DNA from: a virus
Taxonomy: Duplodnaviria > Caudoviricetes
Virus record (IMG/VR): IMGVR_UViG_3300042546_000893
Span: 1-64,000 of that record
Strand: one strand, 5' to 3'
Length of the DNA: 64,000 bases
Shown here one piece after another: positions 61,485 through 61,694 of this stretch (position 1 is the first letter of the stretch; each line of letters opens with the position of its first letter). The position numbers and the translations under genes are program-made. The notes below the pieces were generated by a model that did not search any database, was not told where the DNA came from, and worked only from the letters and a program-made list of their open reading frames with translations.

Positions 61485-61694
61485 ATGAAGTTTCAACTAT
61501 TTCAACTTGCAATCGGATCAACCTTGATCGTCATGATTTCCTCAACCTACTTATTAGATTTTGTCAACAGAGGAAGTGGAAGGGGAGAAAACAAGACCCC
61601 ACCGCCAAAAACTCAAACCCTTGAGTATGGCAAATTTGCAGCGACAACACCAACAGATGAATCCCCAGAACGTGGGGACGGGAGACGCGAATGA
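61485..61694 (+). CDS. PatX/PatS-like small peptide with RGSGR motif
   Basis: Hydrophobic N-terminus; NRGSGR (RGSGR at 61569-61583); C-terminal PERGDGRR. Confidence 0.65.
   Translation: MKFQLFQLAIGSTLIVMISSTYLLDFVNRGSGRGENKTPPPKTQTLEYGKFAATTPTDESPERGDGRRE

Follow-up and report, generated by a model that had tools for sequence, protein, structure and literature searches.

ORF69, a 69-codon gene in the early region of a virus of the Caudoviricetes (IMG/VR record IMGVR_UViG_3300042546_000893), is best described as a variant of the PatX kind that is carried by a phage and bears two motifs, and whose function we infer. The DNA analysed, referred to here as the window, comprises the first 64 kb of this 84.7-kb record, which is 72% complete. 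We propose, with about an even chance of being right, that ORF69 encodes a PatX-type peptide precursor whose host-like peptides supply the PatX/HetR circuit of the cyanobacterial host and hold off HetR-dependent responses. Judged by profile alignment, ORF69 carries both host endings on one chain, that of PatX and that of a GDGRR-type paralogue encoded beside patX, because its C-terminus matches both the paralogue (95%) and the PatX block (91%) and the protein additionally contains the pentapeptide RGSGR. The gene is a genuine conserved early gene of PaV-LD-like Planktothrix phages; its product is probably derived from the PatX family, whose mode of action it would share.

The initial annotation of the locus had described a 69-amino-acid (aa) open reading frame (ORF) with a hydrophobic N-terminus, an exact RGSGR and a C-terminal PERGDGRR, a description borne out by the sequence and by the helix that AlphaFold2 predicts. 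The gene and the elements of its product, in window coordinates, are as follows.

61485–61694, + strand: ORF69, putative PatX-like peptide precursor gene; ATG at 61485, TGA at 61692–61694, 69 aa plus stop.
61491–61565, + strand: hydrophobic N-terminal segment (aa 3–27), a candidate signal peptide or membrane anchor, from the AlphaFold2 helix and the Kyte-Doolittle profile.
61569–61583, + strand: RGSGR (aa 29–33), with N directly before it; the pentapeptide is identical to the end of host PatX (PHRGSGR).
61665–61691, + strand: C-terminal block PERGDGRRE (aa 61–69), the last nine residues.

The translation of ORF69 is MKFQLFQLAIGSTLIVMISSTYLLDFVNRGSGRGENKTPPPKTQTLEYGKFAATTPTDESPERGDGRRE (69 aa). 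From a 21-row alignment, AlphaFold2 predicted a single helix at residues 2–29 (predicted local distance difference test, pLDDT, 81–90), followed by a disordered remainder (pLDDT 52–59). The top 19-residue Kyte-Doolittle window of ORF69 has a mean of 1.62, and relatives reach values of up to 2.4. Searches of Pfam (E up to 0.1, and up to 10) and PHROGs returned no family for ORF69; host PatX, included as a control, likewise gave no match to the PatX Pfam family PF28278. An overlapping frame starting at TTG (61561–62124, 187 aa) was considered as the true gene and rejected, because the homologous downstream gene begins at ATG 61759 with an ATGA overlap; moreover, substitutions track the ORF69 frame.

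Relatives of ORF69 numbered 19 in a set of 5.8 billion proteins, and IMG/VR contained 12 ORF69-type loci. An exhaustive profile search of 1.84 billion representatives yielded five matches, four of them new distant relatives, and cyanobacterial genomes contributed four further copies, so that the family totals 41 entries and 34 unique sequences. One copy, 39% identical to ORF69, lies in a phage-like region of the chromosome of a Planktothrix metagenome-assembled genome (MAG), where it is followed by a DnaB-like helicase and phage families. When the family profile was run against a family-level sample of 101 genomes, nine genomes matched; the matches in two of them (G055 and G060) were weak, stop-containing and motif-free, and were discarded as noise. 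The phage region is 77% identical to parts of the Planktothrix phage PaV-LD. A tblastn search of ORF69 against 50,697 phage records gave no match, and the PaV-LD counterpart was recognised only through the syntenic ORFs. In PaV-LD (HQ683709) this counterpart is an unannotated syntenic ORF of 44 codons (L015:1462–1596) with a hydrophobic N-end, a C-end reading PKRGDDRRS and no RGSGR.

In all 12 viral loci the gene sits between the replication genes and either a leftward orf149 homologue or the regulatory region, which agrees with its earlier placement as the first gene of the rightward early operon, ahead of the replication genes. This synteny persists despite replacement of the helix-turn-helix (HTH) module in nine, and of the next gene in three, of the 12 loci. 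The regulatory module is mosaic: when window positions 61057–61484 were compared with loci L004–L012, the HTH gene and the whole leader proved unrelated in 9 of the 12 loci. In these mosaic loci ORF69 itself stays nearly identical at the DNA level over its 3′ two-thirds (from about 61562).

Pairwise ratios of nonsynonymous to synonymous polymorphism (pN/pS) ranged from 0.16 to 0.71 in 34 of the 35 informative locus pairs and reached 1.24 in one near-identical pair, the 36th pair (L010/L012) being identical and hence uninformative. Amino-acid replacements fell mostly within the hydrophobic segment, whose sequence differs between clades with its hydrophobic character retained, and the changes in both motifs were synonymous. 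The expected conservation of RGSGR in relatives was found in part, the pentapeptide being present in 26 of the 34 unique sequences and in 7 of the 12 viral loci. Its Ser codon is AGT in most loci and TCA in locus L009, and its Arg codons are AGA/AGG in the phages versus CGG/CGA in the copy on the Planktothrix chromosome. Because the Ser and Arg codons have been switched under constant residues, these comparisons show protein-level selection on the RGSGR peptide where it is retained; with the synonymous changes in both motifs, such selection extends to the C-terminal block. The four distant relatives and the Planktothrix-chromosome copy all retain [N/H]RGSGR, followed by a linker that cannot be aligned. 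All 34 unique sequences have the C-terminal block, PxxG[DE][GD]RR; since its first Arg may be Q or P and its second Gly may be D, the core of the block is GD/E-G/D-RR and no strict RGxGR.

Chance was rejected as the source of the RGSGR in ORF69 because of this conservation and the codon switches. The six-frame translation of the window contains two copies of RGSGR, where composition predicts 0.12 and 200 shuffles gave 0.105. The second copy, at about 57283–57297 (+ strand), lies in a 14-residue stop-to-stop scrap opposite an ORF at 57095–57424 (− strand) and is taken as a chance occurrence.

ORF69 resembles PatX (Asl2332 type; NF047413, PF28278) in being small and in having a hydrophobic N-terminus and a disordered linker. 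The two also share RGSGR, ORF69 ends in a block that aligns with the Pro-preceded C-terminal RGxGR-R-E block of PatX, and the host has hetR. The likeness of this Pro-preceded RGxGRR end to the PatX block, already proposed in the initial annotation, was supported by hhalign: the C-terminus of the ORF69 family aligned at 91.2% (E 9.8e-7) with a PatX profile of 27 sequences sampled across the phylum, falling onto the block P-H-RGSGR-R-E, which stands at or near the C-end of PatX in 20 phylum-wide sequences. With Planktothrix PatX alone, the alignment of the family reached 36%. The Planktothrix-chromosome relative scored 9.8 bits on the curated PatX model NF047413. In a comparison of language-model features, which serves as a lead only, the three nearest Atlas clusters were PatX (0.88; 176, 174 and 168 shared features). 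ORF69 nevertheless departs from PatX in several respects: its C-terminal block reads RG[DE]GRRE, with D/E replacing S/T; its true RGSGR directly follows the hydrophobic segment, whereas the PatX motif lies near the C-end; and the gene is phage-encoded, has a candidate early promoter and specifies an N-region without the Arg of PatX.

The C-terminus also matched a second host family. In hhalign the last 15 residues of the ORF69 family aligned with the family of patX-adjacent paralogues at 95% (E 3.8e-8), and the C-terminal 15 residues of the paralogue are 67% identical to those of the ORF69 family. Both proteins have hydrophobic N-termini, that of the paralogue being uncharged. The paralogue, in contrast to ORF69, has 78 aa, is chromosomal, lies downstream of patX (10 of 10 loci), lacks RGSGR and has another linker. 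On this alignment the two share a C-terminal module, with no full-length membership, because the remainder of ORF69 does not align to the paralogue.

Two other HetR-directed proteins offer partial parallels. PatS (13–17 aa) contains the same RGSGR, and the C-terminal ERGDGR of ORF69 differs from PatS6 (ERGSGR) only at the Ser (PMC12756182); PatS, however, has no signal sequence and bears its motif at a free C-terminus, whereas ORF69 has 69 aa, an internal RGSGR and a hydrophobic N-terminus. HetN, a membrane-associated protein of short-chain dehydrogenase/reductase type with an internal RGSGR (ERGSGR), would be an analogue if the ORF69 tail were cytoplasmic, although ORF69 is far smaller and has no dehydrogenase/reductase domain (no Pfam match at E up to 10).

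That the host lineage should carry hetR and patX without forming heterocysts was confirmed in Planktothrix, a filamentous, non-heterocystous genus. The Planktothrix genome containing the 39%-identical copy of ORF69 encodes HetR (259.5 bits). In the structural work on the PatS6–HetR complex, the HetR residues that contact PatS6 are R223, E253, E254, D256, D270 and D278 (PMC4649674), and all six were invariant in 38 of 38 aligned HetR sequences. Host patX was found by translating 26 regions from 107 matches, mostly irrelevant, to a degenerate RGxGR DNA pattern; its product scored 38.1 bits on NF047413 (cut-off 30), and related proteins of Planktothrix agardhii, P. paucivesiculata and P. pseudagardhii bear the name PatX. 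Eleven of the 12 Planktothrix PatX sequences carry PHRGSGR at the extreme C-terminus. PatX is described as a Sec-exported protein that is cut by the peptidase PatP, and the PatX hexapeptide HRGTGR has been found to bind HetR at 88 nM and to eliminate DNA binding by HetR; PatX without its signal sequence is reported to be inactive, and signal-less full-length PatX gave no HetR binding in a two-hybrid assay (PMC12756182). In the phage record, a search for hetR (PF03574) found none; non-filamentous control genomes likewise had no match, as expected.

Matches of the ORF69-family profile to host chromosomal genes led to a second small gene: it was present downstream of patX, at a distance of about 190–360 nucleotides (nt) and on the same strand, in all 10 Planktothrix loci examined (L082–L091).

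L082:1501–1734 (also in L083–L091), same strand as patX: the patX-adjacent paralogue, for example WP_026797163.1.

In an eleventh genome the copy carries a 1-nt frameshift (L047/L092). The product of 78 aa begins with a hydrophobic segment free of charges, and its end reads P[KL][RP]GDGRR[ED/N]; NCBI entries, which span five Planktothrix species, name it only as a ‘hypothetical’ or ‘exported hypothetical’ protein. The gene occurred in 11 of the 101 genomes of the family-level sample versus 2 of the 301 genomes of the order-level sample, and is restricted to the Planktothrix lineage. On NF047413, which had matches in 58 of 301 genomes of the phylum-wide sample, two paralogue sequences scored 21.1 and 16.4 bits, below the threshold, and a third gave no match (E up to 10). 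Aligned directly by hhalign, Planktothrix PatX and the paralogue reached only 4.3%. A PatX ancestry of the paralogue is thus likely but not firm, and the gene probably encodes a second exported peptide signal of the host. Among the papers listed by a literature search (10 of 23 matches), none concerned it; Elhai and Khudyakov 2018, which lay outside that search, may mention tandem patX paralogues.

In genuine PatX-family genes, too, the Ser position of the pentapeptide is variable. A third, unlinked PatX-family gene of Planktothrix, above the NF047413 cut-off, was observed at L126:566–790 (genome G001, 3.98 Mb) and in L127 (genome G003); it reads RGGGRRD in one species and RGEGRRD in another (47.6 and 34 bits). 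In another genus (genome G099), a tandem PatX-family pair (L078:1459–1683 and L078:2294–2518), both members above the cut-off, carries ERGSGRRE in one gene and QKGDGRRE in the other; pairs of RGSGR and GDGRR are therefore not limited to Planktothrix. Newly described here are a host HetR with the PatS-contact residues conserved, a PatX ending in PHRGSGR, and the Planktothrix-restricted patX-adjacent paralogue ending in GDGRR.

On the proposed mechanism, ORF69 would be transcribed from the early rightward promoter, and its product would enter or cross the membrane and supply host-type peptides to the PatX/HetR circuit, keeping HetR inactive in the infected cell and perhaps in adjacent cells. The peptides offered by the tail would be [N/H]RGSGR, as at the end of PatX, with the pentapeptide that binds and inactivates HetR in other cyanobacteria, and SP[KE]RG[DE]GRRE, as at the end of the patX-adjacent paralogue. 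Two variants can be envisaged. ORF69 might be exported and cleaved in the manner of PatX and PatP, the host paralogue having a similar uncharged N-terminus; alternatively, it might be anchored with its tail in the cytoplasm, in the manner of HetN, as the charge pattern of the family would suggest under the positive-inside rule. The points that we infer are export or membrane orientation, processing, the identity of HetR as target and the advantage gained by the phage. Blocking HetR-driven cell death or filament breakage would be a plausible benefit, and Khudyakov et al. have conjectured that the circuit arose for the control of necridia and filament fragmentation (PMC7761841). A broader version of the proposal holds that Planktothrix runs a two-peptide developmental system (the HRGSGR of PatX and the GDGRR paralogue), and that PaV-LD-like phages have fused both peptides so as to gain control, in infected cells and in adjoining ones, of multicellular behaviour that depends on HetR (for example, programmed cell death or breakage of the filament). 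We advance this version tentatively and regard it as rather doubtful.

Several observations weigh against a PatX-type peptide precursor. On NF047413, ORF69 itself scored 7.4 bits (E 7.5; aa 52–69 against profile positions 51–68) with a cut-off of 30, and hence does not qualify as a PatX family member by the curated model. RGSGR is absent from 8 of the 34 unique sequences, including that of PaV-LD, the sole cultured relative, and from 5 of the 12 viral loci. In six sequences two residues are deleted (RG[RMS]G) through loss of one tandem GGAAGT/GGAAGG unit (6-nt slippage), a deletion that accounts for the loss in the 5 viral loci, and one family sequence reads RGSVR. In one RNA-sequencing run, moreover, the depth at the locus drops about 60-fold near codon 38. 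The flanking charges also point the other way: in the family, 0–1 positive residues precede the hydrophobic segment and 2–3 basic residues follow immediately C-terminal to it, ORF69 having two Arg directly after the segment. Under the positive-inside rule, the basic flank of a membrane segment stays on the cytoplasmic side, and the pattern argues against export of the ORF69 tail.

Persistence of the gene in the eight sequences that have lost RGSGR would be readily understood if ORF69 were a small phage membrane protein without a signalling role, acting for instance in superinfection exclusion, lysis timing or membrane remodelling. In that case the PatX-like ends would be inherited remnants of a patX-family gene taken from the host and the basic residues would serve only to set topology, and the long, strongly hydrophobic segment (Kyte-Doolittle values up to 2.4), the basic C-side flank and the lack of a Pfam or PHROGs family or function match would all fit. 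Charge requirements, however, are exceeded by an exact G-S-G held between two Arg through a switch of Ser codon family, and conservation of a nine-residue C-terminal block in a disordered tail, across relatives less than 40% identical, points instead to a specific ligand. We consider a non-signalling membrane protein distinctly unlikely.

Further objections concern HetR itself as the target of the proposed peptides. The D/E of the ORF69 C-terminal block replaces the Ser of PatS that hydrogen-bonds HetR Glu253 (PMC4649674), and the block may fail to bind HetR, because of D/E at this position and of the lack of a strict RGxGR. Free ends are reported to matter for PatS6 binding, N-terminal extension to at least 7 residues lowering the affinity (PMC4649674), and the RGSGR of ORF69 is internal; cleavage on both sides would therefore be required. 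In the non-heterocystous Leptolyngbya BL0902, the effects of PatX on expression appeared largely HetR-independent, and the same study terms the role of hetR and patX without heterocysts a mystery (PMC11298460).

Part of this evidence would suit a protein that imitates PatX-family precursors and acts on the host PatX pathway as a decoy or antagonist, occupying PatP, an exporter or importer, or a receptor of the GDGRR paralogue and so blocking or rewiring host signalling; its target need not be HetR. It is the GDGRR-type block (34 of 34 sequences), and not RGSGR, that is universal in the family, and this block matches the host paralogue; D/E at the Ser position is a poor fit to the published PatS6–HetR contacts (PMC4649674), and PatX was largely HetR-independent in Leptolyngbya (PMC11298460). 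Set against this, RGSGR is retained, with codon switches, in 26 of the 34 sequences and in all distant relatives, the alternative receptor has no support, and the specificity of PatP is not defined at the residue level. We judge such a decoy unlikely.

The neighbouring features of the early region, in window coordinates, are the following.

60796–61056, − strand: divergent HTH regulator gene of the XRE/Cro-CI type, 86 aa (PF13560, E 1.2e-5; PF01381, E 8.9e-5; phrog_5823, phrog_3).
61097–61117, no strand assigned: candidate operator, a 10-nt inverted repeat overlapping the −35 hexamer, with arms 90% complementary and 1 nt apart.
61104–61132, + strand: candidate promoter of the rightward operon, TTGACA-17-TATCAT, 11 of 12 consensus matches.
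61691–61762, + strand: 23-codon ORF with an ATGA overlap with the end of ORF69, from the sequence.
61759–62124, + strand: 121-aa ORF resembling a DNA-binding protein or replication initiator, with an ATGA overlap (phrog_4707, E 5.2e-6).
62121–63281, + strand: replication-module gene of the DnaD-like helicase loader type, 386 aa (phrog_6493, E 4.7e-5).

Both Pfam matches of the HTH regulator lie slightly below the cut-offs, and the PaV-LD counterpart of the 386-aa gene is annotated as a ‘replication-related protein’. The searched region contains nine promoter-like sites, against 3.0 expected. ORF69 had been presented as the first substantial ORF after an operator-controlled promoter. A promoter-like site and an inverted repeat do precede it, and operator control is plausible; a 46-codon ORF starting at TTG (61348–61488) comes earlier in the leader, so the description is fair but not strict. 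This TTG ORF, ORF69, the 23-codon ORF, the 121-aa ORF and the 386-aa ORF form a chain of ATGA start/stop overlaps, which suggests translational coupling of the early ORFs. Elsewhere in the window, the leftward early region encodes a 305-aa protein (58831–59748, − strand) with a full-length DUF5895 match (E 1.5e-44), and very large ORFs occur at 13126–19923 (+ strand, 2265 aa), 26917–31347 (− strand, 1476 aa) and 20667–23906 (− strand, 1079 aa).

The position of ORF69 beside a regulatory switch region bears on a further alternative, that its product is an arbitrium-type peptide passed from phage to phage: released, re-imported and sensed by a phage receptor that steers the infection decision. 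AimP of the arbitrium system is a phage-encoded pre-peptide that adjoins the receptor gene aimR in a temperate phage, and ORF69 resembles it as a putative phage pre-peptide with a signal-like hydrophobic N-end and a conserved C-terminal peptide, near a decision module. Unlike AimP, ORF69 adjoins no receptor-like gene among the neighbours scanned (the 86-aa HTH regulator and the replication genes), and host chromosomal genes encode the same peptide in each of the Planktothrix loci examined, so that a private channel would be jammed. No integrase or resolvase was found in the 84.7-kb record (72% complete), and on this result the term prophage, which the initial annotation used for related elements, is not supported for the record. 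An arbitrium-type signal appears very improbable.

Contigs from four RNA libraries, belonging to three studies, cover ORF69; they give neither strand nor ends nor expression level.

61169–61599, no strand assigned: highly abundant RNA stretch comprising the leader and the first 38 codons of ORF69, from RNA-library contigs.

One exact RNA contig of 428 nt (61172–61599) had a depth of 1184, against about 21 on either side. In a second study, the depth reached 1900 at 61170–61286, and one end, at 61169, bore an adapter tag. The start of the abundant RNA lies some 37 nt past the predicted −10 hexamer; the RNA spans the leader and, in one run, extends over the first 38 codons. The break near 61599–61607 coincides with a Pro-codon indel polymorphism of the ORF69 family, and the low cover from 61638 onward (depth 11–21) is no sign of silence. 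On the + strand, 61169–61300 is predicted to form a long hairpin (61181–61268, z −2.95), the − strand giving z −1.45; a search of Rfam with 60900–61900 (E up to 1) returned no match. The abundant RNA may be a stable leader, an attenuator or a small RNA.

By title and abstract, none of the papers listed in literature searches dealt with a phage-encoded RGSGR or PatX peptide, and no paper paired RGDGR or RGEGR with HetR. Among multicellular cyanobacteria, PatX and HetR form the oldest patterning pair known, and what they do in heterocyst-free species is described as an open question (PMC11298460, PMC7761841). A gene with which a phage copies the endings of host PatX would be the first viral handle on this circuit, and would imply a role for the circuit when a major toxic bloom-former is infected. 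Experimentally, the system is tractable: the host genus and the related phage PaV-LD are cultured, assays of HetR with peptides exist, and the natural variants with and without RGSGR constitute ready-made controls. The unstudied host gene adjoining patX merits study by itself. If the two-peptide version were true, ORF69 would represent a virus that manipulates bacterial multicellular development through morphogen mimicry, and it would point to a second host morphogen beyond PatX.

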